From Chiloscyllium plagiosum (Eukaryota): a stretch of 64,000 nt of DNA. A model generated the notes under the pieces. It worked only from the letters and a program-made list of their open reading frames with translations, made no database searches and was not told the DNA's origin. The DNA is taken from the NCBI RefSeq assembly GCF_004010195.1, contig NC_057710.1, positions 58,734,870 through 58,798,869 on the forward strand, in the 5' to 3' direction. Of this stretch, positions 1-54,479 are shown piece by piece; the stretch's first letter is position 1; the number at the start of each line of letters is the position of its first letter. The position numbers were made by a program, and so were the translations under genes.

Positions 1-257
1 CCTTCCTAACCTGCAATCTTCTTCCTGACCTCTCCGCCCCCACCCCCACTCCGGCCAATCACCCTCACCTTGACCTCCTTCCACCTATCACATTCCCAAC
101 ACCCCTCCCCCAAGTCCCTCCTCCCTACCTTTTATCTTAGCCTGCTGGACACACTTTCCTCATTCCTGAAGAAGGGCTCATGCCCGAAACGTCGATTCTC
201 CTGTTCCTTGGATGCTGCCTGACCTGCTGTGATTTTCCAGCAACACATTTTCAGCTA
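1..257 (+). mobile_element. Penelope-like element 3' end / pseudo-LTR, cut by the window start, with a hammerhead motif
   Basis: Pyrimidine-rich tail, then CTGAAGA-AGGGC-TCAT-GCCC-GAAACGTC at 166-193. The downstream tail is shared with the copies at 15.8k, 24.1k and 49.5k. Confidence 0.8.
161..198 (+). ncRNA. Minimal type I hammerhead ribozyme motif (PLE-associated)
   Basis: Core CTGAAGA (166-172), stem II GGGC/GCCC, GAAA, palindromic ACGT stem III, GTC cleavage triplet (191-193). Confidence 0.75.
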
Positions 258-392
258 AGTTTATTAATAGGAAAGGTTTGGAGAGATATGGATCAAGCGC
301 AGGCAAATGGGGCAAGTTTAGTTTGGGAACATGGTTGGCGTGGATCGATTGGACCGAAGAGTCTGTTTCCGTGCTGTATGATTCCATGACTT
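258..392 (+). mobile_element. CR1/HER1 LINE 3' terminus
   Basis: Matches the 3' ends at 27.7k and 41.8k (ggtttggag.gatatgg...ctgtttccgtgctgta) and ends in a short tandem tail. Confidence 0.75.
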
Positions 393-1504
393 CAATTTTT
401 AACAAAAATTATTTATGCGATTAAAAGGTTACACACTATACCATCCACAGACAAAAGAACAAAGTTGTAATTATACATCTCCTGCAGCACAATTATCATT
501 AGATAACAACAAATAAAGAAAGCTATTCGGCCCATCTTTGCACATCCATATGTTGAAATGCCTGCATCTGTATTGTTTCAAATAGGAGATTTAGGCTTTT
601 GTTTATTAACTTGAACTCCTGGAAAGTGAGAAGCCCAAACAAGAGTTCATATTTAAGATCAGATTCCTTGACTTCAATAATTAGGTGGCAACTCCATTAT
701 TGCTATTTCAAGGCCAGAGTGGTAGATAGGAAACTAGATTGATCTTGGCCTCTTTTATTCGAGCACTTCCTGTGTTCCTATACACTATAATTAGTCTGCC
801 CTTGAAAAACATTTTACAGGATTCCTACAAGTTGTTGTGGAGCAGTGAAAGTGACAGTGGTATGGTTTCATGAAAGGGATAAACGCATAACCATGATCAG
901 CTCCTGGAATTTCTGCATTGGTGGTCCCAATTTCTTTCCATTACTTAAACTCAATCCTTCTGCCAAATTCAGACAAGGCAGCCTAAGAGCAGCTTAAGAG
1001 TAACCCTGCTGGAGGCACCTCTTATATCTGATGCTGAAATTCAGTGCAGATTCCTGGTGCTGACTTCAAAATTGGAACTCACTTCAACATTAAATACAAT
1101 GAAAGAAGATTTAAAACCAGTAGCAGGATTTGGATTGGAGTCAAGTGAAATTGTTGCTCTTTAATTAAAGCAAACAGGAAGACATCCAAACAAATGGTAC
1201 ACACCATTTTCACAGGGGTTCTGCTATCCCATAAGAAGTTTTGGCAGGAGATATGGACAACATATTTAAAAATTCAAGGCAAAGATATTTCATGTTACCT
1301 TTGTGTGAAAATCCAATCATTGAGAGCTACTCCTGAGATTAAGGGCAACATTATTTATAATGGATCAGATGCATAGTTATCTTACCTCCTCTAACAAGGT
1401 CTCTCTTCACCTAGGTACAACATATAAAGGATAACTGCACAGGGTAGCTCACACAAAAATGCTCAATTAACCATTTATTTAAAGGGGTGGATATAAAACT
1501 GAGT

Positions 1505-1640
1505 GAGGGGTTCCTATGGTGCAATGATATTGTCTCTACCTCTGGGTCAGGACGCCCGGGTTCAAGTCCCACCAGATCCAGAGATGTGTAGTAGCAGCTG
1601 ATTAGTAAATATCTATAAAATTGAGTGGAGTCAATAATAG
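1505..1640 (+). mobile_element. tRNA-derived SINE fragment
   Basis: A-box-like TGGTGCAATGA and B-box GGGTTCAAGTCC. A related copy lies at ~20797-20885. Confidence 0.55.
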
Positions 1641-4572: not shown

Positions 4573-4722
4573 ACAAAATATAGGTCATTGCATTTCTGTA
4601 ACAATGTAGATATTACACAGATATGGTACATGTTATTAGAGACTGTTAGATCTAAGGTAACACTCATTCAAGATCCTGAGTTACTTTCTCCACTAGTCTT
4701 CATGACATTATCACAGTGGGTG

Positions 4723-5773
4723 ATGGACGTAGGTTTGCTCGCTGAGCTGGAAGGCTTGTTTTCAGACATTTCATCACCATACTAGGTAACATCATCAGTG
4801 AGCCTCTAATGAAGTACTGGTGGTATGGCCCGCATTTTATTTGTGTTTAGATTTCCTTGGTTTGGTGATGTTATTTCCTGTGATGTCAGTTCCTGTTTGT
4901 TGTCTCCAGGGCTAGTTAATGGGATCCAAGTCAATGTATTTGTTGATAGAGCTCTGGTTTGGAATGCAATGCTTCTAGGAATTCTCGTGCATGTCTCTAT
5001 TTGGTTTGTCCTAGAATGAACATGTTGTCCCAGTTGAAGTGGTGTCATTGCTCATCTGTATGTAAAGATACTACTGAGAGTAGGTCATGTCTTTTTGTGG
5101 CTAGTTGATATTCATGTATCTGGTGGCTAGTTTTCTGCCTGTTAGTCCAATGTAGTGTTTGTTACAGTTCTTGCAAGGTATTTTGTAAATGACATTCGTT
5201 TTGCTTATTGTCTGTGTAGGGTCTTTCAAGTTCATTAGCTGCTGTTTTAGTGTGTTGGTGGGTTTGTGGGATAATAAGAGGTCTGAGTCGTCTGGCAGTC
5301 ATTTCCAAGATGTCTTTGGTGTAGGGGAGAGTGACGAAGGTTTCTGACAGGAAAAGGCAGAAAACTAGCCACCAGGATACATGAACATCAACTAGCCACA
5401 AAAACACATAAGGAAGGACACCACTTTGACTGGGACAACACATCCATCCTTGGACAAGCCAAACAGAGACATGCACAAGAATTCCTCGAAGCATGGCATT
5501 CCAACCGGAACTCTATCAACAAATACATTAACTTGGATCCCATTTACCACCCTCTGAGAAAAAGAACAGGAAATGGCATCACCTCTGGAAATAACATCAC
5601 CAACCCAAGGAAACCTAAACACATAAATAAAAAGCTACCAGTGTTTCACTGGAGGCTCACTGATGATGTTACCTAGTACGGTGAGGGACATCTGAAAACT
5701 AACCTTCCAGCTTAGCGAGCAAACCTACCTCCAGAACCTCAATTTGAGCTGTAAATCTTCTCAAAACTCGCTA
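4723..5773. mobile_element. Penelope-like element with inverted pseudo-LTRs and a GIY-YIG remnant
   Basis: 4725-5345 is a minus-strand copy and 5345-5773 an inverted plus-strand copy of the same 3' region. TSD acagtgggtg at 4713-4722 and 5774-5783. Hammerhead motifs at 4798-4765 (-) and 5660-5692 (+, decayed). Confidence 0.85.
4761..4802 (-). ncRNA. Hammerhead ribozyme motif, sense to the host pre-mRNA
   Basis: Minus strand reads ctca-CTGATGA-T-GTTACC-TAGTAT-GGTGAT-GAAA-TGTC-tga: 3-bp stem I and 6-bp stem II with G-U pairs. Confidence 0.7.
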
Positions 5774-6062
5774 ACAGTGGGTGGTGCTTATGGCACTATC
5801 TGTATTAACTCTTTCAGATCCAAATGCCTGAAAGCAATACTAGGATTTTGACCCAGTGATGGGAAGGACCAGCAAAATATTTCCAAATCAGGTTAGTGTC
5901 TTGGAGGGAAACATGCCAGGGGTGTTGTTCCCATTTGTCTCCTGCACTTAACGTTTTGATTAGCCATCCTACTGGGGCACTGTTTGCACGGGAGGCCTGA
6001 CAGTGTCCAGTTAACTAATTATGCAGGTCCTCCAAGAAATAAGCAACATGGGGTTTTCCAAA

Positions 6063-6225
6063 AAGTCATAGAGTCATAGACTCCTATAGCATGGAAATAG
6101 GCCCTTTGGTCCAAACTTGTCCATGCTGACCAAAATGTCCATCCATGCTAACCCCATTTCCCTACACTTGGCCCATACTCTCTTAAACCCTTCCCATCCA
6201 TGTGTTTGTCCAAATGCCTTTTCAG
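6063..6225 (-). mobile_element. CR1/HER1 LINE 3' terminus
   Basis: (gtcataga)n tail followed by the reverse complement of the HER1 3' UTR. Confidence 0.75.
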
Positions 6226-6336
6226 GGATAAAGTTAAATTCTGCTCAACATCTGCTACACTTAGAATCATGCTTTTGGTCAGGGAGAAAAGGCAGAAAAC
6301 TAAAACAAAAACTTCCAAGTGAAAAGGAGCACCTAC

Positions 6337-6469
6337 CCTGCTTGCAACAATCAGCTGTACAAGTCCTGCTGCTGATCGAAGTAGTGCAACTGCCTCTTGG
6401 TGAGAGAGTCCAACCAGTGACTGTCCATTAATCATTAGCAGTTCATCACCAGATTTCAGTCTCCCATCC
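6337..6469 (-). CDS. PDZD2: PDZD2-family coding exon (C-terminal half of the second PDZ domain)
   Basis: tctaccag|G GAT...AGC AGG|gtaggt; 133 nt. Encodes DGRLKSGDELLMINGQSLVGLSHQEAVALLRSAAGLVQLIVASR, closely matching remembered human PDZD2 DGRLSLGDELLVINGHLLVGLSHEEAVAILRSATGMVQLVVASK. Phase fits the upstream exon. Confidence 0.93.
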
Positions 6470-12399: not shown

Positions 12400-12710
12400 A
12401 AAATGGGAAGAACTGCAGATGCTGTAAATCAGAAACAAAAACAGAAATTGCTAGAAAAGCTCAGCAGGTCTGCCAGAATCTGTGGAGAGAAATCAGAGCT
12501 AACATTTTGGGTCCAGTGATCCTTCCTCAGAACTGGCAGGGTGGTGGCTTGATTGGTGGAGGTAAGAGGATGAAGAACATAATTACAGGCTTTGATCGAG
12601 ATCATTTTACCAGGCCACAGGTATTTTGCTGAGGAAGGGTCATTGGATCTGAAGCATTAACTCTGATTTCTCTGCACAGATGCTTTTCCAGCTATTTCTG
12701 TTTTTGTGTC
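12400..12710. mobile_element. PLE mini-insertion with inverted arms and two decayed hammerheads
   Basis: Left arm (minus; CTGAGGAAGGATCACTGGACCCAAAATGTT) and right arm (plus; CTGAGGAAGGGTCATTGGATCTGAAGCATT) are inverted around a ~95-bp spacer. Confidence 0.7.
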
Positions 12711-14200: not shown

Positions 14201-15470
14201 TATGAGGGCAAACTCAGACCTTGGTGCCCAAAAAGCTTTTAAAGATGGCGCAGAGACAAGAAATGGTGGTAAATTCTGGGATATCCATGGATTGGTGAGT
14301 TATTTTGTGAACGGAGTGTGGTAGGAGAGATTCAGAACTGGATGTGACACAGCACGGTAGGTAATTAACGTGGCAACAAAACCCTAGGGCACTCGACAAA
14401 AATACTCCAAAACCTTGAGGCAACTCAAACTTAGGCAAACAAGCATAAGATGTAGCCCTTTGTGATTGACTTACAATATGCCAATATTTTGGTCAAAAAA
14501 TATACTGGGGATCTTTTTGAACTGATTAAGCATACCTTGATAAATGAGACCAGTATTCCATTGAGACTAATCCTCTATTTTTTTGCTACTTTACTATCTT
14601 CATATAAAATGTTAGCAGTCAAGATATAGATTATACAAACAAACATTTCATTATATGCTACAGTTTTAAGCAGAGTTATTCCAATGATTGCAAATTTAAG
14701 TAAAATGTCAACCGTATTATCTTGTGAGAAATGATCCATTCATCTTACTGAAGAGTTATTCTAAGTAGCAATTTAATTGGAAAATAGAATTTTCTATTGT
14801 GAACAAGCAGCCAATGTGGGGGATCTCAGAATGTGGGAAAATTCTTTCTATAACAAATATTACCATTAAAAGATTTACAATGTTTGTAAGTGTGACAGTA
14901 TCATTTAAATTGAGAAGCATCTATGTAAACTCTCCATATTTAAAATGTTTTGATTGTAAAGGCTGAAAAAATGCATTAAAAGAATCATCAGCTAAAAAAT
15001 AGTAAATGGATTTTTAACCATACTGTGCTATTTCCAACAGTGGAACAGGAAATGGTTTGTTTACTTGCTTTTTTTCAGATTGCCAAGAGATTCCAATTCA
15101 AATTTAAAATACTAGCAATGTGCGTCAGAGGCAAGCTTGGTAGTTAGTTGGGGAGACTTTTCAGCTTAATGTCCAGTTCATGTGAAGCTCTCTGTCAGCT
15201 GAAAACATTACAGCTCTGAACAGGCTATTAAAGAGCTTCCTGAATTGACAGGGAGGTTCTGCATCATAGCCATAATTTTACTGACCAACTCCACAGCACT
15301 GACAAGATTTGCTGACAGCACAAAGGTGGGATGGTATTTTTCAAATTTAAATCTCATTTGTAAATATTTCACATTATGTTAGTTTCAAATTATTCAAATT
15401 ATACCGTGGTCATTTGTTGAGGTTAGTTTAATCAGAGCTAAATGGACTAACACACCTCATGACTGAATGA

Positions 15471-15673
15471 CTGAAAACAAAAAAATGCCAGAGATCACAG
15501 TGGGCCAGGCAGCATCCATGGAGAGAAAGCAAGCTAAAATTTTGAGTCTGGATGACTCATCAGACTTGAAACATTAGCTTGCTTTCTCTCTATGGATGCT
15601 GCCGACTCACTGTGGGCTCCAGCTGTTGCTTTCAGTTCAGATTCCAGCATCTGCAGTAATTTGCTTTTTTATT
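15471..15673. mobile_element. Older palindromic PLE mini-insertion
   Basis: Inverted arms (ggcagcatccatggagagaaagcaagcta / tagcttgctttctctctatggatgctgcc) meet inside a hammerhead remnant at ~15535-15578, followed by the cagcatctgcag tail. Confidence 0.75.
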
Positions 15674-15807
15674 GTTGATGGTTACAGGGGACTGGGGCAT
15701 TTCATTCAGGTGAAAAAAAACGTTGTTTTTGTGCTCATTTTTTTATTAACCTATTTTTCTAATCAACCCATTCAGAGATGTTACTCTGGAGCAGGTGGGA
15801 CATGAAC

Positions 15808-15905
15808 TCATTCCTGAATAAGGGCTTATGCCCGAAACACGATTCTCCTGCTCCTCGGATGCTGCCTGGCCTGCTGTGTTTTTCCAGCACCACATTTTTA
15901 AACTA
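15808..15905 (+). mobile_element. PLE 3' fragment with decayed hammerhead
   Basis: cattcCTGAATAAGGGCTTATGCCCGAAACAC followed by the family tail. Confidence 0.75.
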
Positions 15906-16644: not shown

Positions 16645-16780
16645 ATAGCTGTGGAGATAGTGAGGACTGCAGAGGCAAGTCAGAGTCGATAAAATGTAAA
16701 GCTGGAAAAAGCACAGCAGGTCAAGTAGCATCAGAAGAGCAGCAGAGTTGATATTTCAGGCAGGACCCTTATCAGAACTG
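16645..16780 (-). mobile_element. PLE 3' fragment with decayed hammerhead
   Basis: Reverse complement of the family tail; CTGATAAGGGTCCTGCCTGAAATATC on the minus strand. Confidence 0.7.
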
Positions 16781-17344
16781 CAGACACTACCAAGTTAAAC
16801 TCTAAATTTGAAACTGCTATTAGGAAAGCAAAATTTCAGCACTGTGTAATTACTCACCCTGCTTGCACATGGATCGCCAATGGCAGTCTTACATTGTCCT
16901 TGTAGCAGATGGCATAAGTTTTGAAATTGCCTCTTTGCTAACCTGGAGCTAATTGTCCTCAATTATTGCCAGGTTGATTGAACAATAAAGGTTATAGATG
17001 GCTAAGGCATTGGATGAGATATGGTTGATATGGGTTTCTTCTCTTTTATAACACTGCAATCATGAATTTTATTCAGGTACTTTATATCGAATTTCATCAT
17101 TAACCTGACAAGTGGCACGAGATTTTATGAAAAGCAAATACAGATAGCTTGCCCCCCATTAATGTACTAGCTGTGTCGACGTTTCAGTTACAGTGCCTTT
17201 GTAGGTAATGTTTAGTTGATGTAGTTTTACCAAAGTTTTATTTAAACCCAATAACAGATCCCCTTCAAAAAAATAAACAAACAACACAAAATGATTCAAG
17301 GAGGAGGAGGAAAACTGTCCATTCAAAGCTCGGGTAGCTGAAAG

Positions 17345-17855
17345 GCCTGAAAATAAACAGACATTATTGGAAAAACTCAGGTCTGGCAGTATCTGTGGAG
17401 AGAAAACAGAGTTAGAGATTTGGATTCAGCGATCTTTCTTCAGAGCTAACTGGAGCTAGAAAAATGTTGGTATATGTACTGAAGATGGAGTAGAGGGAGG
17501 ACGGAGGAATTAACAAGAGGTAGAGATGAACCCAAAGAGAGAAGCACAGTTGGGCAAACAAGGACTGGGCAAAGGTCAGCCTGGGAAAATCATAGGGGTC
17601 ATTAGTGGCTGACAATGACCACTAATGACCCTTATGATTTTCCCAGGCTGACCATCTTTCAAAATACAAATTAAAGTTATGTCTTTTTGACCACAGTTGG
17701 TAGCAGCCCATATGATGACAAGACATAATCTGTGGGATTAGGGTAATAACTTGGGAAAAGGTGGTCAGGCCCTAAAATTACTGAAATTGGGATTGAGTTC
17801 TGCAGGCTGCAGGATCCTCAAGTGGAAAATTAGGTGCAGTTTTGCCGGCTTGATC
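17345..17855 (-). mobile_element. PLE fragment with hammerhead remnant and internal fold-back
   Basis: Tail plus CTGAAGAAAGATCGCTGAATCCAAATCTC at ~17443-17415; body similar to 26.5-26.85k. Confidence 0.65.
17574..17653. repeat. 35-bp inverted repeat with 10-nt spacer
   Basis: 17574-17608 versus 17619-17653, one mismatch. Confidence 0.9.
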
Positions 17856-21599: not shown

Positions 21600-22800
21600 T
21601 GCCATGGTGCAACTGCCTAATCAAAAAATAGATAACGAAGGAGTTAGATATAGCTCTTCATGCAAAAAGGAGGAGAAGGATGTACCTGACAGCTATAGGC
21701 CAGTCATTTAGAATCAGTGATGGGGATGCTTTTAGTAACCTTGGAATAAATTAATTCCTAATTGGACAAACATGGAATAATAAATAAAAGCCATATTTGT
21801 TAAAGACAAATCATGGATGACAAACTTGATTGAGTTTAAAGATAAAATGAGATACATGATACATGAGAACATATGCTGTGCATGTTGAGTATGTGTACTT
21901 CCAAAAACATCTGAAAAAAGTTAAGCTCGTGGAACAAAAGGGGCAAAGGCCACATGTATATGACATTAGCTCAGGTTTAGAAAACAAGACAGTTGTGAGC
22001 AGTTGGGTTTTCAGCTGGATGGATGCATGTTTTGATACATGACAATATTATTACTCAATGGTCCAAGTGCAGTTGATTCCTATCAAATATTTGTACCAAT
22101 GTTGTTACATAGAATTTATAGCACAAAAAGAGACCATTCAGTCCAACTGGTCTGTGACAGTGCCTGTGCTCCTCCTACATATGAGCATCCTCCCACTCTA
22201 TTTCATTTAACACCCGACCAACAAATCCTCTCTGTCATTTACATTTCTGTCTTTATATAGATTCCTTTAAATGCAGAGACTCATAGACATTTACAACACA
22301 AAAGAAAGCCAATAAACCCATTGTGGCCCTGCCAATCACAAAGATCTGACCACTCTAATTCCTTTTTCCAGCTGTCAGCCATCGCCCTGGAGGCTATGTG
22401 TCCAGAACTGTGGCCTAACCAGCACTGTATACAGTTCCAGAATAATCTTCCTGCTCTTGTATTCTTTGCCACCTCTAATAAAGGTAACTATCCCACATGC
22501 CTTCTTAACCATGATATATACATGCACTGCCACCTTCAGGGATGTGGATATTCACACCAAGGTCCCTCTAGGATTCAGCATGTTCCAAAGTCCAACTGAT
22601 CTGAAGATGAGTCTTTGGATCTGAAATGTTAACTCTGATTTTTCTCCAGAGATGCTGCCAGAAATGCTGAGTCTTTCTATTTTTGTTCATATCATTCATA
22701 GTTGTTAGGCCCATCAAGCACATTATCTCACACTTCTCTGGGTTAAATTCCATTTGCCACTGATCTGCCCAGTGAGCTATCTTCTTCATTCTTTACCATT
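21600..22800. mobile_element. Decayed CR1 fragments (plus 21.6-22.07k; minus 22.1-22.8k) with a PLE tail at ~22598-22690
   Basis: 'ctataggccagtca' (YRPV) and 'WADQWQMEFNPEKCEIM' RT motifs; CTGAAGATGAGTCTTTGGATCTGAAATGTT hammerhead remnant. Confidence 0.6.
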
Positions 22801-22829: not shown

Positions 22830-25020
22830 ACTACTATTTATTTGTCTATTCATCCCAAGGAAGAAGAAACATACTAAGGGGGGAAATAGGCAACAGTGGC
22901 TGACAAGGGAAGCTAGAAGTTGACAAGCCTTTAAAAACCAACAAGAGGCCAACTTAAAAAGCAAAGGGGTGGTGGGGCAGTGTTTGGAGAAGATTAAATA
23001 TGAGAGTAAGCTAGCTATAAATATAAAAGAAGATTGTAAGAGTTTTTTTAATATCTATAAGATAAGAGAGAAACAAGATTGGACTGCTAAAAGAATGAGG
23101 TTGGAGAAGTAGTAGCAGGGATCAAAGTGGCGGAGGAACTGAATATGTACTTTACATCAGTTTTCATGGTGGAAGACACCAGTATCATACCAGAACTTCA
23201 AGAGAGTCAGAGCAGTGGCCATCAGTAAGGAGAAGTTGCTGGAGGAAGCTCAAAGATTTGAAGGTGGATAAAAGGATCAGATGGCCTAGACCTCAGAATT
23301 CTGAAAGAAGTAGCTGAGGATATTGTGGAGTTTTTGGAGGTGATCTTCCAGGGGAAGGAACTGGAGTCAGGAAGATCCCATAGTCTTAGAAAATGGCCAA
23401 TGTAAGACCACTGTTTAAGAAAGGAGGGAGGTAGAAGACAGGAAATTATAGGCTAGTTAGCCTGACCTGGGTCATTGGTAAGGTTTTAGAGTCCATTATT
23501 AATGATGAGATTGCAGAGTATTTGGAAGTAAAATAGGGTTGAGTCATGGCTTTGTCAAGGGAATGTCAGGCTTGACAAATCTGCAGGAATTCTTTGAGGA
23601 AGTAACAAGCAAGTTAGTCAAAGGTGAGCCAGTGGACATGATCTATTTGGATTTCCAGAAAGGAGGCTGCTAAATAAGGTAAAAGGTCATGGTGCTAGGG
23701 CAAGGTTCTGGCATGGATAATGGGTTGGCTGACTGGCAGAAGGCAGAGAACAGGGATAAAGTGATCTTTTTCAGGATGGCAGACAGTGAGTAATGGAGTT
23801 CAACAAGGGTGAATGTTGGGACCACAACAATTCACATTACACATTAACGATCTGGAGGAAGGAATAGAGGGCATTGTTGCTAAGTTTGCAGTGACATGAA
23901 GATATCTCGATGGGTAGGTAGTGTTAAGGAAGTGGGGAGGTTGCAGAAGGACTTGGACAGGCGAGGAGAGTGGACAAAGAAGTACCAGATGTAATATAAT
24001 GTAGGAAAGTGAGGTTATGCACTTTGGTAGGATGAATAGAGGCATAGCTGAAAATGTGTTGCTGGAAAAGCGCAGCAGGTCAGGCAGCATCCAGGGAACA
24101 GGAGAATCGACGTTTCGGGCATAAGCCCTTCTTCAGGAATTCCTGAAGAAGGGCTTATGCCCGAAACGTCGATTCTCCTGTTCCCTGGATGCTGCCTGAC
24201 CTGCTGCACTTTTCCAGCAACACATTTTCAGCTCTGATCTCCAGCATCTGCAGCCCTCACTTTCTCCTGAATAGAGGCATAGACTATTTACTAAATTGGG
24301 AAAGACTTTGGAAATCTGAAACACAAGGGGACTTGGCAGTTCTAGTTCAGGATTCTCTTAAGGTTAACATGCAGGTTAATTGGCTGTTAGGAAGGCAAAT
24401 GCAATGTTACCACTAATTTCTCGACTGCTAAAATACAATAGCAGAAATGTACTGCTGAGGCTGTATAAGGCTCTGATCAGACTGTATTTGGAATATTGTG
24501 AGCAGTTTTATCTAAGGAAGGATGTACGCGTCTTGGAGGGGGTTAAGAGGAGGTTTATAAGAATGATCTCAGTGATGAAGGGCTTGTCATATGAGAAGCA
24601 GTTGAGGACTCTGGGTCTGTACTCGATGGAGTTTTGAAGGATGAGGAAGGATTTCATTGAAACTTATAGAATGCTGAGAGGTCTGGATTGAGCAGACCTG
24701 GAGAAGCTGTTTCCACCAGTAGGAGAGACTAGGTCCTGAGAGTACAGCCTCAGAGTGAAGCACAGCCTCAGTTCAAAAGGATCCTTTTGAACTGAGATGA
24801 GGAGGAATTTCCACAGATGGTGAATCTGTGGAACTCATTGCCACGGAAAGCTATGGAGGCCAAGTATTAAAGACAGAGATGGATAAGTTCTTGATTGGTA
24901 AGGGGATCAAAGATCACACAAAGAAGGCAGGAGAATGGGTTGAGAAATCTATCGGGTATGATCGAATGGTGGGGCCTGAATGACCTAATTCTGTTCCTAT
25001 GTCTTCTGGTCTTATGTTCT
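22830..25020 (+). mobile_element. CR1 LINE (RT to 3' UTR), interrupted by a palindromic PLE
   Basis: ANVRPLFKKG, GNYRLVSLT and IYLDFQK-like motifs; 'LRLYKALIRLYLEYCEQF' ORF; CR1-like 3' end (cctaattctgttcctatgtct). Confidence 0.9.
24048..24267. mobile_element. Young palindromic PLE mini-insertion with two divergent hammerheads
   Basis: 94-bp arms 24046-24139 and 24140-24233, one mismatch, no loop. 15-bp TSD tgaatagaggcatag at 24033-24047 and 24268-24282. Cores at 24143-24170 (+) and 24136-24109 (-). Confidence 0.93.
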
Positions 25021-26397: not shown

Positions 26398-28214
26398 AAA
26401 TTAAAACAAAGAACTGCAGATCTGAAACTAACAGCAATAGAATTGCTAGAGAAATTCAACTGGTCTGGCATTATATGTAGATAGAAAACAGTTAATGTTT
26501 CAAGTCCAGTAACACTTCTTGAGAACTGATGGCAGCTAGGAAATAGGTGGAGATGGACCCCAGAGAGAGACACAGAAAACAAAGTGGGGAGCTAAGGTGT
26601 TGATATTAAGCCAGCCAGGGATGAGGACAAGCTACTTTGGTGATAATGGGGGCTATTAGAAGTAGAAAATGGGTTGGCTATGCTAAAAGCAATCCATGTT
26701 GACAAGACCTAGGAGTGGTGGTGGGTAATGGAGGTAGGTGTTCATGCTCTAAAATCTGTTACACTTTGTGTTGAGCCCTGAAGACTGTAAGGTCCCCAAA
26801 CGAAAATGAGGTGTTGTTCTCCCAGCTTGTGTTGATCTCACTGGAGCAGTGCAGCAATCCTGAGACAGAGGGGAACAGTGGTGTGTTGAAATGGCAGGTA
26901 ACTGGAAACCTGGCATCATTTTCATGGACAGAACGTATGTGTTCTGCAATGCAATTGCCCAGTCGTGTTTCCTCTCTCCATTGCAGAGGAGACCACATTA
27001 TGTGAGCAGTGAATACAGTAGACTAAATTGAGTGAAATGCAGGTAAATCATAGCTTCACTTGAAAGGTATGTCTGAGGCCTTCAATAATGAGGAGGGAAA
27101 AAGTAAAAGGGCAGGTGTTACACCTTCTGAAATTGCATAGGACGATGCTACAGGAGTGTGCTAAAATCTTAGGAGTGGGGGAGGGTGGACAGGATGTCCT
27201 GGAGGGAATGGTCTCTGCAGAAAGGTGACAAGGGAGCTTGTGCCTGGCATCCCACTAGAGGTGGAGGAAATGGCGGCTTATGATCGCTTGGATGTGGAGG
27301 TTGCTGGAGGAGAAAATGAAAACTGGAGGACTCTCTTGATCTTGTGGATGGGAAGAGAAGAGGTGAGGGCAGAAGGGTTGGAGGATTTAAACTAATAGGG
27401 AGAGATTGAATAGGCTAGGGCTGTTTCCCCTGGAACATCGGAGGCTGAGGGGGTGACCTTATAGAGGTTTATAAAATCATGAGGGGCATCAATAGGATAA
27501 ATAGACAAAGTCTTTTCCCTCAGGTGGGGGAGTTCACAACTATAGGGCGTAGGTTTACGGTGAGAGGGGAAAGATATAAGGGGCAACTGTTTCACACAGA
27601 GGGTAGTACGCGTATAGAATGAGCTGCCAGAGGAGGTGGTGGAGGCTAGTATAATTGCAACATATAAAAGGCATCTGGATGAGTATATGAATAGGAAGGG
27701 TTTGGAGGGATATAAGCCAGGTGCTGGCAGGTGGGACTAGATTGGGTTAGGATATCTGGTCAGCATGGACAAGTTGAATCGAAGGGTCTGTTTCCGTGCT
27801 GTACTTCTCTTTGACTCTATGACTCTAAGTGTGTGAAATAGGACAGAAACAGCTAAGGGCCCTGACAATCACAGTCACAGGGTTGAGGAAAAGGGTGGAC
27901 ATTTCTGAGGCTCCTCTGCAGAAGATGGCATCATCAGAACAGATGCGATGAAGACAGATCACCTGCTTGGCTTCTCTTCTTTCCTGGTTTACTATCAACA
28001 ATCCTTTTGTCTGTCTACCTTTGCTTCTTTCTCTCTCTGCCCTTCATCTCCACCTATGCACTCATTCCTTTTCCCTCCCCCAACCCTGTCATCAGCATAA
28101 TTACCATCCTTTCCTAGCGACTATCAGTCTGGAAGGATCACTGGCCTTGAAATATTAACTGTTTTCTCTCCATAAACCCTGCCAGACCTGCTGTGTTTCT
28201 TCAGCAATTTCTGC
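26398..28214 (-). mobile_element. Penelope-like element (GIY-YIG region) with an inverted pseudo-LTR at 27960-28214, interrupted by CR1
   Basis: 'TRLGNCIAEHIRSVHENDARFPVTCHFN' GIY-YIG-like translation. Hammerhead remnants at ~26492-26523 (-) and ~28129-28158 (+). Confidence 0.8.
27375..27828 (+). mobile_element. 5'-truncated CR1/HER1 LINE inside the PLE
   Basis: RLGLFPLE...RLRGDLIEVYKIMRG translation; (gactctat)n tail. Confidence 0.9.
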
Positions 28215-28696: not shown

Positions 28697-28732
28697 CTGT
28701 AACACAAACAGATCGCCTTCATCAACTAAATG

Positions 28733-42391: not shown

Positions 42392-44488
42392 GTCATAGAG
42401 TCAGAGATATACAGCACAAAACAGACCCTTTGGTCCAACTCATTCAGGCCCCCATATATCCTAAATAAATCTTGTCTCATTTACTTGCACTTGGCTCATA
42501 TCCCTTTGAACCCTTCCTATTCATATACCCAACCAAATGCCTTTTAAAATTTTGTAATTGGACCAGCCTCCACCAGCTCATTCCACACACGCACCACCCT
42601 CTGTGAGGAAAAAGTTGTCCCTTTAATATTTTTCTCTCGCACCTTAAACCTATGTCCTCTAGTTCTGGACTGCCCCACTGTGGGGATAAAATCTTGTCGA
42701 TGTACCCTATCCATGCCCCTCATGATTTTTATAAACCTCTATAAGGTCACCCCTCAGCCTCCAACGCTACAAGGAAAATAGCCCCCGCAAATTCAGCCTC
42801 TCCCTCTAGCTCAAACCCTCCAACTCTGGCAACATCCTTGTAAATCTTATCCGAACCCTTTCAAGTTTCACAACATCCTTCCTATAGCAGGGGTCCAGAA
42901 TTACATGCAGCATTCCAATAGTAGCCGAACCACTATCCTGTATAGCCGCAATATGACCTCCTAACTCATATACTCAACGCACTGACCAATAAAGAAAAGC
43001 ATATCAAACACCTTCTTCACTATCCTATCTGTGACTCCACTTTCAAGGAACTATGAACCTGCACTCCAAGGTCTCTTTGTTCAGCAACACTGCCGAGGAA
43101 CTTACCATTAAGTGTGTAAGTCTGATTTGCCTTTTCAAAATGCAGCACCCCACATTTATATAAATTAAACTCTATCTACCATGCCTTGGCCCACTGGCCC
43201 ATCTGATCAAGATCTCATTGTATTCTGAGGTAACATTCTTTGCTGTCCACTATACCTCCAATTTTGGCCATAGAGTTCCACAGCATGGAGACATACCCTT
43301 CAGCCCAAACGTGTCCATGCCAACCAAAATGTCCATCCACTTTAACCCCATTTCCCTGCACTTGGCCATATCCTTCTAGTCCTTTCCTATCCATGTATTT
43401 GTCCAAATGCCTTTTAAATGCTATTAATGTACCCGTGTCAACCACTTTCACTGGCAGCTCATTCTGTAGGCATCCAACTCTGTGTAAAAACGTTGCCCCT
43501 CAGGTTCCCTTTTATTCTTTCCTCTCTAACCTTAAACTTATGCCCTCTAGTCCTGGATTCCCCAACCCTAGGAAAAAGACTGAGTGCATTCACCCAGTCC
43601 ATCCCTCTCATGATCTTAAAGACCTCTATAAGGTCCCCCTCAGTCTCCTACACTGTAAAGGAGAAAGTCCTAGCTTGTCCAATCTCTCCCTATAGCTTAG
43701 ACTGTTGAGTCCACATCACACCCTTGTAAATTTCTTCTGCATTTTTTCCTGTTTAATAACATCCTTCCTATAACAAGATGACCGAAACCCAACATAATAC
43801 TCCAAGTGCAGCCTCACCAACGTCCTGTATAACTGCAACATAACTTCCCAACTTCTTTACTCAATGCCCCAACTGATGGAGGCCAGTGTGCCAAAAGCTT
43901 CTTCACTGCCCTGTCTACATGTGACTCCACTTTGAGAGAGGTGTGATCCTGAACGCCAAGATCCCTCTGTTCCACTACATTGCTTAAGGCCCTACCATTC
44001 ACCATGAAACTCTAAACTTGGTTTAGCTTTCCAAATGCAATACCTCATAGTTATTTATATTAAACTCAACTTGCCATTTTTTGGCCCACTTCCCCAGCTG
44101 ATCAAGATCCAACTGCAATTTCTGATAACCTTCCCTACTTTCCACAATGCCGCCTATTTTAGTGTCATCAGCAAACTTACTAATCATGCCTTGTACATTC
44201 TCATCCATATCACTGATATAGGTAACAAACAGTAATGGGCCCAGAGTCGAAGAGTGTGGTGCTGGAAAAACAGCTGGTCAGACAGCACCCAAGGAGCAGG
44301 AGAGTCAACGTTTCTGGCATAAGCCCTTCATCAGGAATGGACCCAGCTCAGATCCCTTAGGCACTCCACTAGTCTCAGGCCTCCAGTCTGACAAGCATCC
44401 TTCCACTATTAGCCTCTGCTTCCTACCATCAAGTCAATTTTGTATCCAATTTGCTAGCTTGCCCTGGATTCCATGCGATCTAACTTTT
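42392..44488 (-). mobile_element. Two stacked CR1 LINEs (second 3' end at ~43268)
   Basis: ISKFADDTKIGG, QRDLGVQ and WQVEFN motifs; two 3' UTRs. Confidence 0.9.
44245..44335 (-). mobile_element. PLE 3' micro-insertion with hammerhead
   Basis: CTGATGAAGGGCTTATGCCAGAAACGTT at 44334-44307. TSD aatgggcccag / aatggacccag at 44234-44244 and 44336-44346. Confidence 0.8.
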
Positions 44489-45787: not shown

Positions 45788-45971
45788 TTAAACAAGAACA
45801 AAAAGTTGTTGGTGAAACTCAGCAGGTCTGGCAGCATCTGTGGGAAGAAAGCAAAATTAATATTTCAAGTCCAGTGACTCTTCTTCAGGTTCTGCCAGAC
45901 CTACTGAGTTTCACCAGCAATTACTGTTTTTGTTTCAGATCTCTAGCATCCACAGTTCTTTGTTTTATTTA
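45788..45971. mobile_element. Inverted-arm PLE mini-insertion
   Basis: ggtgaaactcagcaggtctggcag / ctgccagacctactgagtttcacc arms. Minus-strand CTGAAGAAGAGTCACTGGACTTGAAATATT. TSD actgaagtaata / actgaggtaata. Confidence 0.75.
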
Positions 45972-47469: not shown

Positions 47470-50400
47470 TTAGAACATAGAACAGTACAGCACAGTAACG
47501 GACCCCTCGGCCCACAACATTGCGCCGAACAAGATGCCAAATTAAACTAATCCTTCCTGCCTGTCCTTGGTCCACATCTCTCCATTCCTTGCATGTTCAT
47601 GTCCTTTTCTAAACATCCCTTAAACGCCCCTATCATACCTGTCTCCACCACTACCCCTGGCACCACTTTCCAGTCTGTGTAAAAGAAACTTGCCTCTGAC
47701 ATACCGTTTGAATTTTCCTTCTTTCACCTTTAATGCATGTCCCCTAGTATTAAACATTTCCACTCTGGGAAAAAGATTCTGACTGTCAGCCCTATTTATG
47801 CACCTCATTAATGTTATAGACTGCCATCAAGTTTCCCCTCAGCCTCTGCTGCTGCAGCAAAAGCAACCTGAGTTTTCTAGCCTCTCCTCTAATCCAGCAG
47901 CATCCTTGTAAACTACTTCTGCACCTTCTCTAAAGCTTCCACATCCTTCCTGAAATATGGTAACCAGAATTGAATGCAATGCTCTAAGTGTGGCCTGACC
48001 AAAACCTTATAAAGCTGCAACGTGACATCCTGACTTTTGTACTCAATTCCCCAACCATACTCAATTCCCCAACCAATAAAGGCAAACATGCCATATGCCT
48101 TCTGCCCTACCTAGCTTCAGGGAGCAATGGACTTGAACCTCAAGATCACTCTATACATCAATGCTTTTCAGTCCTGTCATTAACTGTATACTTTTCCTTA
48201 CCATTTGATCTCCCAAAGTGCAGTACTTCTCAGTTACCTGGATTAAACTCCATCTACCATATCTCCACCCATATTTACAACTGATCTATATCCAGCTGTA
48301 TCATTTGACAACCTGCTACACTATCCACAATTCCACTGATCTTTGTGTCATCTGCAAACTTACTAACTCACCCATCTATATTTTCATCCAAACGATTTAT
48401 ATATATCACAAACAGCAGAGACCCGGTATGGATCCCTGTGGAATACCACTAGTCACGGACTTGCAGCCAGAAAAACACCCTTCCACCGCTACCTTCTGCC
48501 TTCTATAGGCAAGTCAATTCTGAATCCAAGCAGCTAAGTCACCATGGATTCCATGCATCTTAATTTTCTGAATGATCTACCATGAGGGACCTTGTCAAAA
48601 GCCTTACGAAAATTCACGTACACAACATCCACTACTCCATTCTCATCAATCACCTTTGTCACCTCCTCGAAAAATTCAATCAAGTTAGTAAGACATGACC
48701 TGCCCCACACACAGCCACGCTGACTGTCCTAATTGGCCATGCTTTTCCAAATATGTGTAAATCCTATCCCAAAGATTTCTCTCCAGTAGCTTCCCAAGCA
48801 CCGCTGCAAAACTCATTAGTCTATAGTTTCCTGGATTATCCCTGTTTCCCTTCTTGAACAGAGGAACAACATTAGCTGGGACTTCTCCAGTGGCTAGCTC
48901 TTGGTCTAGGCCCCAGCAATTTCCTCTCTTGCCTCTCTCAATAACCTGGGATAGATACGAGCAGGTCTGAGGACTTATTCACTTTAATGCTCTTCAGGAG
49001 ACCCAACACCACTTCTCTTGTGATCTCAAAATGCCCTAGCATATTAGCATGCTCCACTATCCTCCCTATCCTCCCTATCCTTCCCCTGGGTGAATACCGA
49101 TGCAAAACACTCATTTAGGATCTCGTCCACATCCTCTGCCTCTAAGCACAAGTTCCCTCCTTTATCTTTGAGGAGTCCTACCTTCTCCCTAGTTATGCTC
49201 TTATTTTTAATGCCTTGGGATTCTCTTTAACCCTACTTGCCAAGGTCACTTCATGGCCCCTTCCTGTTCTCCTAATTCCCTGCTTGAGTTCTTTCTTGCT
49301 TTCTTTATATTCCTCATGGGTCTGTCCAATTTTAGCTTCCTAAACCTTATATATGCTTCTTTTTTTTCCAACTAAATTCACAACCTCCCTCGTCATCTCA
49401 GGGTCCTTCCTCCTGACTGGAACATGCCAGTCCTAAACTCTAGGTTGAAACTTTATTGCTGGAACAGCACAGCAGGTCAGGCAGCATCCAGGGAACAGGA
49501 GATTCGACGTTTCGGGCACAGGCCCTTCTTCAGGACTCCTGAAGAAGGGCCTGTGCCCGAAACGTCGAATCTCCTGTTCCCTGGATGCTGCCTGACCTGC
49601 TGTGCTGTTCCAGCAATAAAGTTTCAACTTTGATCTCCAGCATCTGCAGACCTCACTTAGTCCTAAACTCTAATCAGTCGGTCTTTAAACAGCACCCACA
49701 TGTCAAATGTGGACTTGCCCGATAACAAATCCACCCAATTAACACTCCCTAGCTCTTGCCTCATACTTATGTTGCCATCCCCCAATTTACTACCTTTCCC
49801 ACAAGGTCCTGACCTATTCTTCTTCATAGCTATCTTAAAACTTAGGGAGTTGTGTTCACTGTTTCAAAATGCTCTCTCAATGCAAGGTCAGTCACCTGGC
49901 CAGGTTCATTAGCCAATACAAAGTCCAGTATGGCCCCTCCTCTAGTGGGACTATCCACACACTGTTTCAAGAAACCCTCTTGAAAGCACTTTAAAAAATT
50001 CTGCCCTGTCTAAGCCTCTTGCTCGAAGGAAGTTCCAGTCCATATTGGGGAAGTTAAAGTCACCCATTACGACAACCCTGTCTGCCTAACATATTTGTTC
50101 CTCAATGTCTCAGTGGCTGTTTGGGGTCCGAGAGTATAATCCAATCAGAGTGACTGCACCCAACTTATTTTTTAGCTGTACCCATATTGCCTCAATGGAT
50201 CAGCCCTCCAGTATGTCCTGAGTGTAGCTGTGACATTCTTCCCAATTAGTAATGCAATCCCTCCATCTCTTTTACCTTCCACTCTATCTCATCTAAGACA
50301 GTGAAATCCTGGAAAGTTGAGCAGTCAATCCTGTCCCTCTCTCAACCAAGGAGAAAGTGAGGACTGCAGATGCTGGAGATCAGAGCTGAAAATGTGTTGC

Positions 50401-50900
50401 TGGAAAAGCGCAGCAGGTCAGGCAGCATCCTTTGCTACAACACCATAGTCCCATGTACTGATCCAGGCTCTAAGCTCATCTGCTTTACCAATACATTCTA
50501 TGCATTGAAAGAAACACATTTCAGCCCATTAGTACCATCATGTTCATTTACCTGTCTCTGCCTGTCCTTCCTTTCTGACTTACTAGTCCTAACATCTATC
50601 TTCCCCCTCAATCCCTTCACTTGCTGACCTGCTGCTCTCACTGATTCCCATTGCCTCCCTCCACTCTAGTTTAAACCCTCCCACCACTTTAATTTTAAAC
50701 CATTCCAAGTAGCACTAGCAAATCTACCTGTGAGGATATTGATTCCCCTCCATTTTATGTGCAACCCGTCCCTCTTGTACAGGTCACCCATGCCCCAGAA
50801 GAGGTCTCAATGATTGAAGAACCTGAAACCCTGCCCCTGCACCAGCTACTCAGCCACACATTCGTCTGTCCTATCTTACCATTCCTTGCCTCACTAGCAA
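47470..50900 (-). mobile_element. Long degenerate CR1 LINE (ORF1 end, endonuclease, RT, 3' UTR)
   Basis: Reverse-complement motifs KFADDTK, GIPQGSIPG, NYRLMSF and DFNFPN; tagaacatagaa tail. Interrupted by PLE pieces at 49443-49658 and 50351-50430. Confidence 0.9.
49443..49658. mobile_element. Young perfect palindromic PLE mini-insertion with two divergent hammerheads
   Basis: 92-bp perfect arms 49444-49535 and 49537-49628, 1-nt centre. 14-bp TSD agtcctaaactcta at 49429-49442 and 49659-49672. Cores at 49539-49566 (+) and 49533-49506 (-). Confidence 0.94.
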
Positions 50901-52293
50901 AGTATTCTGAAAGTATTTTTCCAAACCTGGAGCTAAGAAAATGTAACAGGCCCAGAAATTCCTATCAGGCTTTATCTGCAGGCCCCATGTATATCACACC
51001 CAAAGTTTTCTTAATCTGGCTATATTCATGCCATTTTGCTGGGATCAGGAAGAATGTTTGGAGCTGCAGTTCAGCCACCAGTCTGACAGGAGCTCTCTCT
51101 CAATTATATTGCACAATGGTAGCCATTTTGACCTGAGGCCTAAAGATTATCCAAGAGGATAAAGAAGTCCAAAAACCAATGATACCATGGTCAAGAAATT
51201 TTAAGCTCTGCCCCAACAGTTGAGGGTATTGAAATATCAACATTGAACATACTGATCTCAGCAATTCCAATTCGTTGCAATGTTTATACAACAGAATTAG
51301 GACATTGGAGAGTTTCCACAAAATGAGGCAGACAGGAGTTTAATTACATTCAAAAGGCACAGCATCAACATCATCAGCTCTGTAATTTAAATGTACTGCT
51401 AGACATGAGGGATACACATTGTAGCTTTTCAGAAGTCTCTTAAGTTCTTACTGTCTTGAAGTGTGAACACTTTACTTCAGCAAATACCTGCACCTCCCTT
51501 TAATCTTTAACAGATACATCATCCAAGCCTGTTGACAGGCAGACTGCAGAATAGGTCATATGACTCCCTTCATTTTATGCTGAATTCAAGACAGTCCCAA
51601 AATATAACAACCTTATGGAAAATCCTACTTAATACTGTATACTATATCTCCTGTCTTATCCCAGGGAAACGTAGCTGTCTTTATTCAATATTATACACTT
51701 TGACTTTATAGTCAAATAATTAATCTTTAAATGAAATGATTACAGTCACAGAGCATAGGCCTCCTCATTAGAGATTCTTGCAGTGCAATGTTTAATAAAT
51801 TGGAAATTGGCCCGATATGGCCAATAAAAATGACAAACTCTGATTAAACGACTTTTGTTAAACAGCCTATAATTTACATTTGAAAGAACTGCTTCCTGCC
51901 TTGGATAAGTCTGTGCTTACAATTTGCATTTTATTTCCCTAATTCTACAGAATTGATTTTTTCAGACAGTCCAGTACAACTGAACATCAGTACAATTCTT
52001 CTAAGCCATGGCAAACAGAATATCAGGCACAGGGAGTCGAGTGCCTTGTTATTGAATTTTAAAATGAAATCTGCAAATATATGAGGTAGTCAAACTTCAA
52101 AAAGTGCTCATACTAAAGAGGAATTAAACTGAGGCACCACCTATTCTCAAGGGTTGTGATAAAAGAGCTTATAGCACTGTGGATAATTGATGGAACATTG
52201 TAGAAGAGCAGGAAATGTCAAACACATGGTGTTTTATCTACATAACTCATTGTTGATAAAGTGGACTATTACATTACTAATAACTGTTCCATT

Positions 52294-52415
52294 CGCAAGG
52301 TTTGTGAAGGTTTGTAGCTCAGCTTGAGGTTTAGAGTGTAGGTTTGCTCGCTGAGCTGTAGGTTTGATATCCACGGATAACAAACCTACAGCTCAGCAAG
52401 CAAACCTACACCCTA
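52294..52415. mobile_element. Fold-back PLE micro-insertion (family of the 4.7k element)
   Basis: 44-bp arms 52329-52372 and 52375-52418, three mismatches. 12-bp TSD aactgttccatt at 52282-52293 and 52416-52427. Confidence 0.85.
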
Positions 52416-54479
52416 AACTGTTCCATTATTACCAATTATCGAATATGACCAACTATTGGCTTCTCTTTAGACGTGGATGAAAGTACAATGCCAAATATGT
52501 ACCTTTTCATTTAGCATGAGAGTAGTTGGCAACTCAATTTAATGCCTTATCCAAAAAGGTGAATCAACAAGAATAGAGGGAATTACAGAAAAAGGAGTGA
52601 GGAAACAGAAGACAAAAGATGAAGAAGCAGAAGATTGTTACCCACAGAAAATAAATACTGATTAACTGTGTTCATTGTCACAGTAAACCAGCCAGGCTTA
52701 CTTTAACACCCATGTAAAAATGGACTTCCACATTAATAGCAGGAACCAGTCTTTATCTTAAGTATTATGCAACATCTGCAAACCACAGTAGTAGAACTCA
52801 TTAAGCTGTTTGGGATTGCACCTTTTAAGTTGACCTAGTTAGTAGCTCAGTTCACCCATTTTCAATTTCCTCAGTTGGCTATTGCAAAAATGTAATGATC
52901 GCTTCAAAACACAGCCATACCTTATACCAGGTAAAATGCCAACTACTGGATCACAGAAACAAATAAGGAACCAAACTCAAAGTTTTCTAGAGTGAAATGA
53001 AGTGCAAATACCAGCTAAGTATCAATTTCGGGGAATTTCATGGAGCTTTCCCTCTCTGGCAAGTTACCGTATGCAATTCTCCATTGCTCATCTCATTATC
53101 TATGTATCACAACTCTACAGAGTGGTGCTTGTACTATCGTGCTGTTGCCAACGGTGGAAGAACTCATGACTGCAGTTTCTTTCTGCGATTCCCACTGCAG
53201 CTGTGTCAAGCCCCGTCAGTCAGGAGCTGTCCTTCACAGTGCAATGTAAGAAGAATTTTCTCACAGATGTCTAACAGAGGCATGTCAGCAACCTGCACCA
53301 TCAACCCAAAGTTCTGGTGGATCGGGGAGATGGAGAGGAGGGCTATCATTCCTTAAGATGGTCAAGGACTTTATTTCAAGTGCAATTAGAGATGACCAAC
53401 AAATACCACCTTTACTAGTGATGCCCACATCCCACAACAGAATTTGTTTCTAAAAGTTCATGGGGCATCTGTGCTCAAAGGTAGTTAATAGTCAAGGGAT
53501 TATGTACTAACGACAAGTCAGCAGCGATAGGAGATATGGGAAAAGGAAAACAAAACTGAAGGAACTTAAAAAGGAAAGGAACACCAACAAATACTGCTCT
53601 CTTTGTGACTGTGGAAATGTTTATGCTCCATTCCTTTTATCATGTCTGCTAAATTAACAGGAAACAGATTGAGATAATATTGGTATTCCTATCTTGGGCT
53701 TTATTTTGGGAATTATCTTACAATTTTTAAATTAATGGATTTGAGATATTTATGGTAATTATTCAGCAGCTATGTGTAACATTGCTGGGATATTTGAAAC
53801 TTTATATTCTCATCTCTTATAGCTGCTGCCCTGTCATTCATTCATGATCTTGTTACCGTTTTCTTTTGCTGCTTCACCAAGCAAGGTTTTACTTTTTTCT
53901 TGTGTGAGTTGCACTTCCATTTAAAAAAATGTCACTGAACTAAAAAGCTGAATGAAATTCAATTGAGACCAGTGATGTAGCTGAGTGGAAAGTGTGCGGA
54001 TAACATTGTGAAAAGCTCTTTCATGTCTTTTATGATTAAAAGAGCATTGGTGGAAAATGTTGATCACAAAGTAAGTACCTGAAGAAATATTGAAACAGAT
54101 GCCCTTATTGGCAACACAGTTGATGTGCAGAAAATGCTTGACATTAATGAAGAATTTACAATAATGTCTGGAGGAACTGTGAAGGAACTTCCTATTGATC
54201 CCAATCCTGATGTAGGTATCCAAAATATTATAACTTCCTAGAATCTTTAAGTTTACTCTATTGTTGATGATGTGAAATTTTACTTTCTGCTAGAGATCCA
54301 GATAAATTATTGTCTGCAAAGGAGTAGCCTCAAGTTAAAAAGACAATGGAAGTCATCCCACTACCTATAGAAAAAGCAATTCTTACCCGAAGAATAGTAG
54401 GGAAATCATTGTTTCTTCAACTTCAGAAGACTCTTTAAATAGTCTTTGTTTCATCAATTCCCAGATGACTACACATTTT

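Follow-up and report, generated by a model that had tools for sequence, protein, structure and literature searches.

Copies of a putative Neptune-type Penelope-like element in Chiloscyllium plagiosum end preferentially just upstream of the hammerhead ribozyme, probably at the capped 5' end of the element RNA

It is already known that Penelope-like elements (PLEs) carry ribozymes in their pseudo-long terminal repeats (pseudo-LTRs), that their copies are truncated or inverted, and that a tail is found on one side. In this study, we analysed PLE copies in a stretch of 64,000 nucleotides (nt) of the Chiloscyllium plagiosum genome (assembly GCF_004010195.1, contig NC_057710.1, positions 58,734,870 to 58,798,869 of the forward strand; hereafter the window), and followed them elsewhere in this 3.56-Gb animal genome. 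We found that in family A, which by its motifs appears to be the 3' end of a Neptune-type PLE, reverse transcription ends or switches template near position -4 at a much higher rate than at other positions; the numbering takes the C of CTGA, the hammerhead core, as +1. Family C, an older relative assigned to the Neptune type from the similarity of its 3' repeat alone, has the same edge, whereas family B, which is Poseidon-type, does not. An excess of G just before -4 and initiator-like sequence at -4 suggest that this edge probably marks the capped 5' end of the element RNA. The element class is known; the mechanistic readout is new.

The breakpoint peak at -4

The 5' ends of family A were mapped in a content-blind sample of 1.2 Mb, drawn from 8 contigs in 11 blocks, of which 85,977 bases were unreadable. 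From 368 seeded loci, 309 were aligned to nine references, all of them long copies from the same sample; 306 of these were distinct, and 246 passed a filter of score at least 50 with at least 30 aligned bases in +29..+88. Thirteen arms with unreadable flanks were left out of the histogram (n = 233) and treated as censored in the table of stop rates. In the histogram, 26 of the 233 arms begin at -4, 15 at -3 and 14 at -5. The stop rate per nt among the 246 arms is 0.23 at -4, 0.16 at -5 and 0.12 at -3, far above that of the flanks (0.0035-0.0063 at +21..+50 and 0.001-0.005 upstream of -16). Among the 141 arms that reach the core (-1), 87 end by -10 and 46 extend to -17. A shoulder of 0.011-0.026 per nt, two to five times the flanking rate, lies within the motif itself (+1..+20), and no stop peak was found in this sample at the cleavage site predicted for family A, after +28 (+28/+29), with 0.0057 per nt at +27..+30. 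The pile-up near the core that the first-pass annotation had noticed by eye is therefore real, and the ends do not follow a smooth decay in length from the 3' end.

The peak does not depend on how the copies were found. It persists in the 141 arms of at least 90% identity (0.26 per nt at -4), in a separate 150 kb where seeds were confined to sequence downstream of the ribozyme (7 of 16 arms fall at -2..-5), at exact-match loci (22 of 30 beginning at -1..-6), and in several subfamilies. Of 25 young single arms, 12 have a word of at least 8 nt in common between their two junctions (in shuffled sequence the mean was 0.3 and the maximum 2), and none of the 25 has its upstream flank in common with another, which implies that the edges were made at insertion, in independent events. 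The expectation that such breaks generate insertions the size of short interspersed nuclear elements (SINEs) was likewise borne out, in that inserts of 95-130 nt carry their own target-site duplications. They resemble SINEs in size only: the copies consist wholly of pseudo-LTR sequence, and not of a tRNA-, 5S- or 7SL-derived head with a polymerase III promoter, and they have variable starts and unshared flanks.

The clustering had been claimed across several families, and this holds for A and C only. In family C, 27 of 40 starts fall at -1..-7, 8 at -40 or beyond and 5 at +1..+6 (first 40 of 362 matches). None of 30 family B loci begins at -1..-10 (first 30 of 2,819 matches); 4 begin at -18..-30 and 26 at -50 or beyond. 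Five rows of family B at -1/-2 came from a diverged subfamily with continuing upstream sequence, some of them counted twice, and one arm begins at -9. Genome-wide start patterns of family B at -21 (31 matches) and -4 (310 matches) were dropped, as subfamily differences confound them; about three quarters of the first 100 matches to the -4 pattern are one subfamily variant.

Extra G, tandem junctions and inverted pairs

The base at -5 was counted genome-wide in family A by exact patterns for the base before ATTCCTGA. In addition to 24,000 templated C (24 of 30 inspected loci with this C are long copies), there were 5,546 G, 2,692 A and 1,105 T, that is, G makes up 59% of the 9,343 non-templated bases against about 26% expected from composition. 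Long copies have at -5 just the spectrum of ordinary mutation (T 61, A 23 and G 16 in the first 100 of 290), and thus the extra G belongs to copies ending at -4. Inverted arms do not account for it, since about half of the inspected loci lack one (10 of 20 with G, 9 of 20 with A and about 4 of 10 with T, by eye). After a run of six A, the preceding base is G in 10 of 12 cases. At the non-inverted loci with G, the G stands outside the target duplication in 2 of 10 and, in most of the others, within short target microhomology (by eye). It has been previously reported that full-length capped L1 insertions are marked by an extra G (PMC11702581), and by analogy the extra G found here is likely to be a cap signature.

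Position -4 is the A of TCATTC in family A and the A of TCAGTT in family C, both of which we take to fit the initiator consensus. In family C, TATAAA starts 29 nt before this A in one copy and is literally present in 5 of 7 long copies. Family A has TTTATCT at about -36..-29 (window 130-137), where family C has its TATA box; this word is kept between family A subfamilies that are about 70% identical and forms a GATA-type site on the opposite strand. No downstream promoter element was found by eye, the nearest candidate being off by one base. A splice acceptor as the source of the edge was considered and rejected, as the AG-ending tract lies near -26 and there is no peak there. As a separate observation, another family related to C, whose core is a variant (TTGACAAAG), carries an AGCT at -4 with TATAAATA about 30 nt upstream of it (block L101-L110, near base 4840), and a palindromic copy of this family begins at that AGCT.

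Copies that run on into the element body are informative on what happens after the enzyme reaches -4. Among the first 30 of 184 such copies, 13 reach the core, and 9 of these 13 start at +6..-7. One of the 30 served as reference; of the other 29, 22 have a second sense unit, 20 of which are joined directly. At these direct tandem junctions, the second unit starts at +5..-12 in 15 of 20 cases and exactly at -4 in 6, with an A-run at the joint in 4. If these junctions are read as cDNA, the enzyme would have completed one template near -4 and then continued on the 3' end of a transcript that was short and in some cases polyadenylated.

The 1.2-Mb sample contains 61 head-to-head pairs against 9 tail-to-tail neighbours. 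In 55 of the 61, one arm ends near +126 and so includes the tail, and the other ends near +91 (p about 5e-11 against one half); of the remaining pairs, 4 are without a tail, 1 has two and 1 was not classed, and some tails may have been missed where the best reference lacks one. By hand count, the tail-less arm reaches further 5' in 31 of the 55 one-tail pairs and the tailed arm in 21, with 3 ties. The first-pass annotation had described such pairs as fold-backs, and this description fails for the 31, whose tail-less arm is no simple copy of the tailed one. Snap-back of a single cDNA was therefore rejected for these pairs, as it needs the tailed arm to reach further, and two priming events fit better. 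The joints of 33 young pairs show mostly 0-3 nt of overlap or short inserts, like ordinary end-joining. These results suggest that inverted pairs come from two priming events at two known sites.

The steps could be as follows. A promoter in the pseudo-LTR would start transcription at the initiator-like A, so that the mRNA would begin right at the ribozyme. The enzyme would prime inside this RNA at +91 or +126, as it does in vitro for a lizard element, and a cDNA of 95-130 nt would run off the cap, with a C added opposite the cap. The end of this cDNA may then be end-joined to the target, giving a single short copy; it may be joined to a second cDNA primed off the other target strand at the other site, giving a head-to-head pair with one tail; or it may jump to the 3' end of another transcript, giving a tandem. 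For longer copies, priming would have taken place in the 3' repeat of read-through RNA. A further proposal, which we consider rather doubtful, is an LTR-like cycle in which the strong-stop cDNA from +91/+126, having run off the cap, pairs with the RNA's 3' end. The hammerhead cut in the 3' repeat would in this case trim the RNA at +28, leaving a terminal repeat of 32 nt (-4..+28). If true, such a cycle would explain both the regeneration of the pseudo-LTR and the purpose of the ribozyme, and the short copies, in their tens of thousands, would represent transfers that failed. The genome copies do show run-off, as well as jumps to other RNA ends, whereas transfer through the repeat is not seen; the cap-G scar predicted by strand transfer was sought in long copies and not found in the first 100 of 290.

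Objections and rival explanations

Several observations weigh against a capped RNA end at -4. About a third of family A arms run past the site. The control for the extra G is a single junction, +34, where G was counted 68 times and A or T together 769 times (with A in about 40 of the first 100), and the A/T count there is inflated by slippage. In the 1.2-Mb sample, G precedes -4 in 12 of 26 arms, yet it also precedes 36 of 102 stops at -3..+50, a smaller contrast than in the genome-wide counts. For family C, G makes up 27 of 50 non-templated bases by hand count (first 100 of 925 matches) and 14 of 28 once likely inverted-arm joints are removed, and 40 fetched loci show no G excess. No canonical TATA box is found in family A. 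Of 30 family B loci inspected, 12 matched both a TATA-like box and an initiator-like A, and in 10 of these 12 the box stands 27-28 nt upstream of that A, which lies at -20/-21; only 4 of the 30, however, start at -18..-30, so that the presence of a start site is not always enough for a strong peak. The putative start of families A and C coincides with the 5' edge of helix I, where promoter and fold cannot be separated. Finally, single-cell RNA reads show no start peak, the reads being dominated by passively transcribed short copies: of two raw runs, one gave 1,866 reads, 94% of which continue into unlike sequence, and the other none. Differences in the short-copy reads of one run (A>G 24, G>A 34, C>T 20, T>C 18) do not distinguish divergence from editing. 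Considering all these points, we still regard the capped 5' end as the probable meaning of the -4 edge.

In the first-pass annotation, the hammerhead fold, or an element protein bound to it, was proposed to stall the reverse transcriptase (RT) or to trigger a template switch. The raised stop rate within the motif, the position of the peak in A and C at the edge of helix I, some joints whose microhomology is supplied by self-complementary stem II or helix I (as at 15.5 kb), and the report that a lizard ribozyme cleaves only when protein is present (PMC11167929) would all suit this proposal. However, copying proceeds along the RNA from 3' to 5'. A roadblock should therefore act on the 3' side of the ribozyme, and at +27..+30, where the enzyme first meets the fold, there is no peak; the main peak is situated past the fold as synthesis runs, at a point where the ribozyme has been copied in full. 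Nor would a stall predict the extra G at the stops, the end-joining character of the young-pair joints, or the lack of a peak in family B, which has the fold. The in vitro comparison with core mutants that the first-pass annotation had proposed exists already, though for a Poseidon element, and there the mutants left the product size unchanged (PMC11167929). We thus consider the stall unlikely as the source of the peak and a minor possibility mainly for the shoulder inside the motif, which is also expected from trimming back from -4. Alternatively, the RNA might end at -4 by processing, through a second cleavage, a host nuclease or splicing, with the G added at run-off without template. Even where no cap is present, a reverse transcriptase can add bases on reaching the end of its template, and processing would explain the sharp edge and the tandem jumps equally well and would suit the lack of a canonical TATA box in family A. 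Against processing, -4 is an initiator-like A in families A and C alike, and family C has TATAAA at the distance to be expected. No AG acceptor precedes -4 and no upstream exon is shared, and the predicted cut at +28/+29 accounts for about 540 starts after triple filtering against 9,343 after single filtering at -4. Processing seems improbable to us.

An edge made at the DNA level is still harder to reconcile with the data. The lizard GIY-YIG endonuclease prefers 5'-ATT-3' (PMC11167929), and ATT stands at -4..-2 in family A, where the enzyme could cut the new copy; but family C peaks at the same offset on AGTT, and the extra G and the A-run joints would go unexplained, which makes this reading very unlikely. 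We give as little credence to short master copies that start at -4 and spread in a SINE-like way with inherited breakpoints. The copy number is indeed very high (31,859 exact genome matches to one family A 30-mer), and non-autonomous derivatives of pseudo-LTRs are reported in vertebrates (bioRxiv 10.64898/2026.07.22.740005, available text). Against masters, starts range from +10 to -10 with unshared flanks, the same peak recurs in several subfamilies and in run-on copies (9 of 13), and the masters would themselves need a start at -4. That the peak is an artefact of detecting or aligning a conserved core next to diverged upstream sequence was suggested by the counterexamples which had been left out at first, and old C-type copies may lack a fitting upstream reference. 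For family A this is largely refuted by the arms of at least 90% identity, the downstream-only seeding, the exact-match loci and the target duplications at the edge, and overall we hold an artefact to be scarcely credible.

Element anatomy, window copies and known systems

Upstream of the family A repeat, long copies enter a GIY-YIG frame with CCHH and a CX4CxxC linker, and downstream, after the tail, the translations of run-on copies enter the N-terminal region of the RT. This arrangement, with IIYCIRCTRCGLLYIGETGR...H...H before the repeat, is that of the endonuclease-positive (EN+) class of PLEs. The linker between RT and endonuclease, described as a Neptune feature of the form CX2-5CxxC (PMC8557442), reads PCNCKKCKTC in one copy and PCNRKKCKTY in another, and on such sequence features family A would belong to the Neptune clade. 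Family B has a GIY-YIG frame with KDPIQTTSKTNVIYKIPCRNCNKHYIG and, in three copies, no CxxC linker upstream. Pfam gave no match on four element fragments from the window, and the RT core is illegible in the long copies. Two whole elements have ribozymes 3,111 and 3,629 bp apart (3.1-3.6 kb) in the order ribozyme, tail, reading frame, the frame following the first ribozyme. The long frame of family A seems to begin near +161 and is preceded by a short upstream frame. In the tail, at +118..+128 (window 24260-24268), a pyrimidine tract directly before AG (TTTCTCCT followed by AG) resembles a splice acceptor. The repeat behaves as a pseudo-LTR, with partial tandems, inverted copies, an optional tail and 3' ends at about +91 and +126. 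It contains a minimal type I hammerhead with CUGANGA, stem II, GAAA, a palindromic minimal helix III, NUH and a short helix I; stem II folds in this motif, and self-cleavage is predicted. A scan with Rfam, which has no model matching this minimal type I form, returned no hammerhead.

The window lies inside a minus-strand gene with a PDZ exon, and the PLE repeats under study would be intronic. Two exon-like frames of the host gene are found at 6148-6486 (-), which has a Pfam PDZ match, and at 28216-28725 (-). A degraded long PLE frame of another family, from the RT N-terminus to the CxxC linker and the start of GIY-YIG, occupies 31080-33150 (-) and is broken on its 3' side by a short tandem repeat and an RT fragment of a long interspersed nuclear element. 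Two near-identical repeats at 25450 and 26778 have the CTGAAGA...GAAA spacing; they match none of the PLE family queries and were excluded from the counts. Elsewhere, family A copies are nested in other repeats, including Poseidon-type PLE frames (five examples).

Table 1. PLE copies and related features in the window. Start positions were obtained by aligning the arms to real long copies unless stated; counterexamples are copies that do not begin near the core.
Position	Strand	Feature	5' end and remarks
1..256	+	Family A 3' end, core at 166	Reaches at least -165; ends at about +91, the inner priming site; counterexample
162..165	+	ATTC at -4..-1 within TCATTC, initiator-like	A at 162 is the putative family A RNA start
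4724..5773		Family B head-to-head pair, ribozymes at 4798 (-) and 5660 (+)	Junction near 5347 in the GIY-YIG frame, 300-550 nt upstream of the ribozymes; 10-bp target duplication (4713-4722 and 5774-5783); counterexample
12405..12534	-	Family C arm with tail	Begins at -4
12629..12710	+	Family C arm	Begins at +1; distance to inverted partner 95 nt
15470..15670		C-related head-to-head pair	Joined within stem II (about +18)
15807..15905	+	Family A single arm	Begins at -7; target duplication of about 6 bp
16653..16781	-	Diverged A/C-like arm with tail	Begins at -4 by eye (AGTT just before CTGA); alignment to family A references begins only at +16
17364..17653	-	Family C arm	Reaches about -190, where it folds back (hairpin 17574-17653); counterexample
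22592..22690	+	Family C single arm	Begins between -9 and +1
24046..24268		Family A head-to-head pair, arms at 24140 (-) and 24139 (+)	Both arms to about -4; 3' ends at +91 (left arm) and +126 (right arm, with tail); target duplication of 15 bp (24033-24047 and 24268-24282)
26409..26543	-	Family C arm	Begins at -20; counterexample
28006..28213	+	Family C arm	Begins at about -123; counterexample
44245..44339	-	Family A single arm	Begins at -5; 11-bp target duplication (one mismatch) overlaps the 5' end
45794..45960		Family C head-to-head pair	Minus arm begins at +1 (45888), plus arm at +49 (counterexample)
49444..49658		Family A head-to-head pair, arms at 49535 (-) and 49537 (+)	Both arms begin at -2; one tail; 14-bp target duplication (49429-49442 and 49659-49672)
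50349..50429	-	Family A arm	Ends at +45, short of the ribozyme; counterexample
52292..52418		Family B head-to-head pair	Arms meet at about +35/+36, the predicted cleavage site of the family (by eye); 12-bp target duplication (52282-52293 and 52416-52427)

The copies that had been listed as starting near the core were confirmed, by alignment or, for the 16.8-kb copy, by eye, and seven arms or pairs of the window that had gone unlisted start elsewhere (Table 1). The switch inside the motif noted at 15.5 kb and the fold beside the cleavage site noted at 52.3 kb were both found again, the latter as a single case. Each window pair with a target duplication has a single one, of 10-15 bp. Sub-threshold Rfam matches to microRNAs (miRNAs) fall on PLE-made hairpins at 17574-17653, 15501-15608, 24086-24194 and 45806-45920, and inverted pairs could give double-stranded RNA once the host intron is transcribed. 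Caution is thus advisable in annotation, as calls of a "SINE" of about 100 nt or of a palindromic "miRNA hairpin" can be PLE products.

How pseudo-LTRs are rebuilt, how tandems and head-to-head copies form, and what the hammerhead does are open questions; the mechanism of pseudo-LTR regeneration is stated as not known in the available text of PMC2377424, and a rival model, in which head-to-head palindromes arise by self-priming on antisense template, is given in PMC3846280. Tens of thousands of frozen products in one genome suggest that the 5' boundary is the RNA cap, and finished cDNAs appear to jump to polyadenylated RNA ends. Our literature search, with subscription papers and figures outside its scope, found no mapping of these 5' breakpoints and no extra G.

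Cervera and de la Pena (2014; PMC4209133) describe single hammerhead motifs and opposite-strand pairs 100-700 bp apart. Like family A, the Neptune PLEs in the accessible text of PMC4209133 and PMC8557442 have GIY-YIG with CCHH and a CxxC linker and a minimal hammerhead in the repeat, and they are also found as 5'-truncated copies, partial tandems and head-to-head copies with a tail of 30-40 bp at one end (PMC8557442); unlike the present study, this text contains no 5' breakpoint map, no tie to a start site and no extra G. For PAc, a Poseidon element of Anolis, two internal priming sites, which bound the tail, and cutting and extension of both target strands have been demonstrated in vitro (Frangieh et al. 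2024, PMC11167929), much as proposed here. According to the same text, product length follows the template 5' end, ribozyme cleavage is dispensable for cDNA synthesis and no RNA reads end at the ribozyme cut. That work maps the 3' ends of a Poseidon element, whereas we mapped the 5' ends of a putative Neptune-type element and found no peak in the Poseidon-type family. In Penelope of Drosophila virilis, promoter and start likewise lie in the pseudo-LTR, and tandems are both common and required (Schostak et al. 2008, PMC2377424); there, however, a 75-bp intron, 46 bp past the start, separates the start from the ribozyme, with the intron end at helix I (PMC4209133), whereas here the start would abut the ribozyme. 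Non-LTR retrozymes are also short, non-coding, derived from pseudo-LTRs and hammerhead-bearing, but they are tandem arrays, with circular RNA as a presumed intermediate (bioRxiv 10.64898/2026.07.22.740005, available text). The window copies are monomers or inverted pairs rather than arrays of at least two hammerhead units, and would be made off element RNA; the two-unit tandems elsewhere in the genome contain reading-frame sequence.

The cap G, the second priming from the other target end and the jumps have parallels in L1 and R2, as far as described in the available text (PMC11702581, PMC11371274). These elements prime at the 3' end of their RNA, so that reaching the cap gives a full-length copy, whereas priming near the 5' end would give only about 100 nt here; and the arms of twin-primed L1 do not overlap, whereas those described here overlap fully. 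The likeness extends to retroviruses and LTR elements.

In these, minus-strand strong-stop DNA is a short cDNA whose priming site is close to the RNA's 5' end; it runs off the cap and can be transferred to another RNA end. It is primed by a transfer RNA, whereas the PLE cDNA would be primed by the target DNA and inserted without an integrase, and a transfer through a terminal repeat is hypothetical here.

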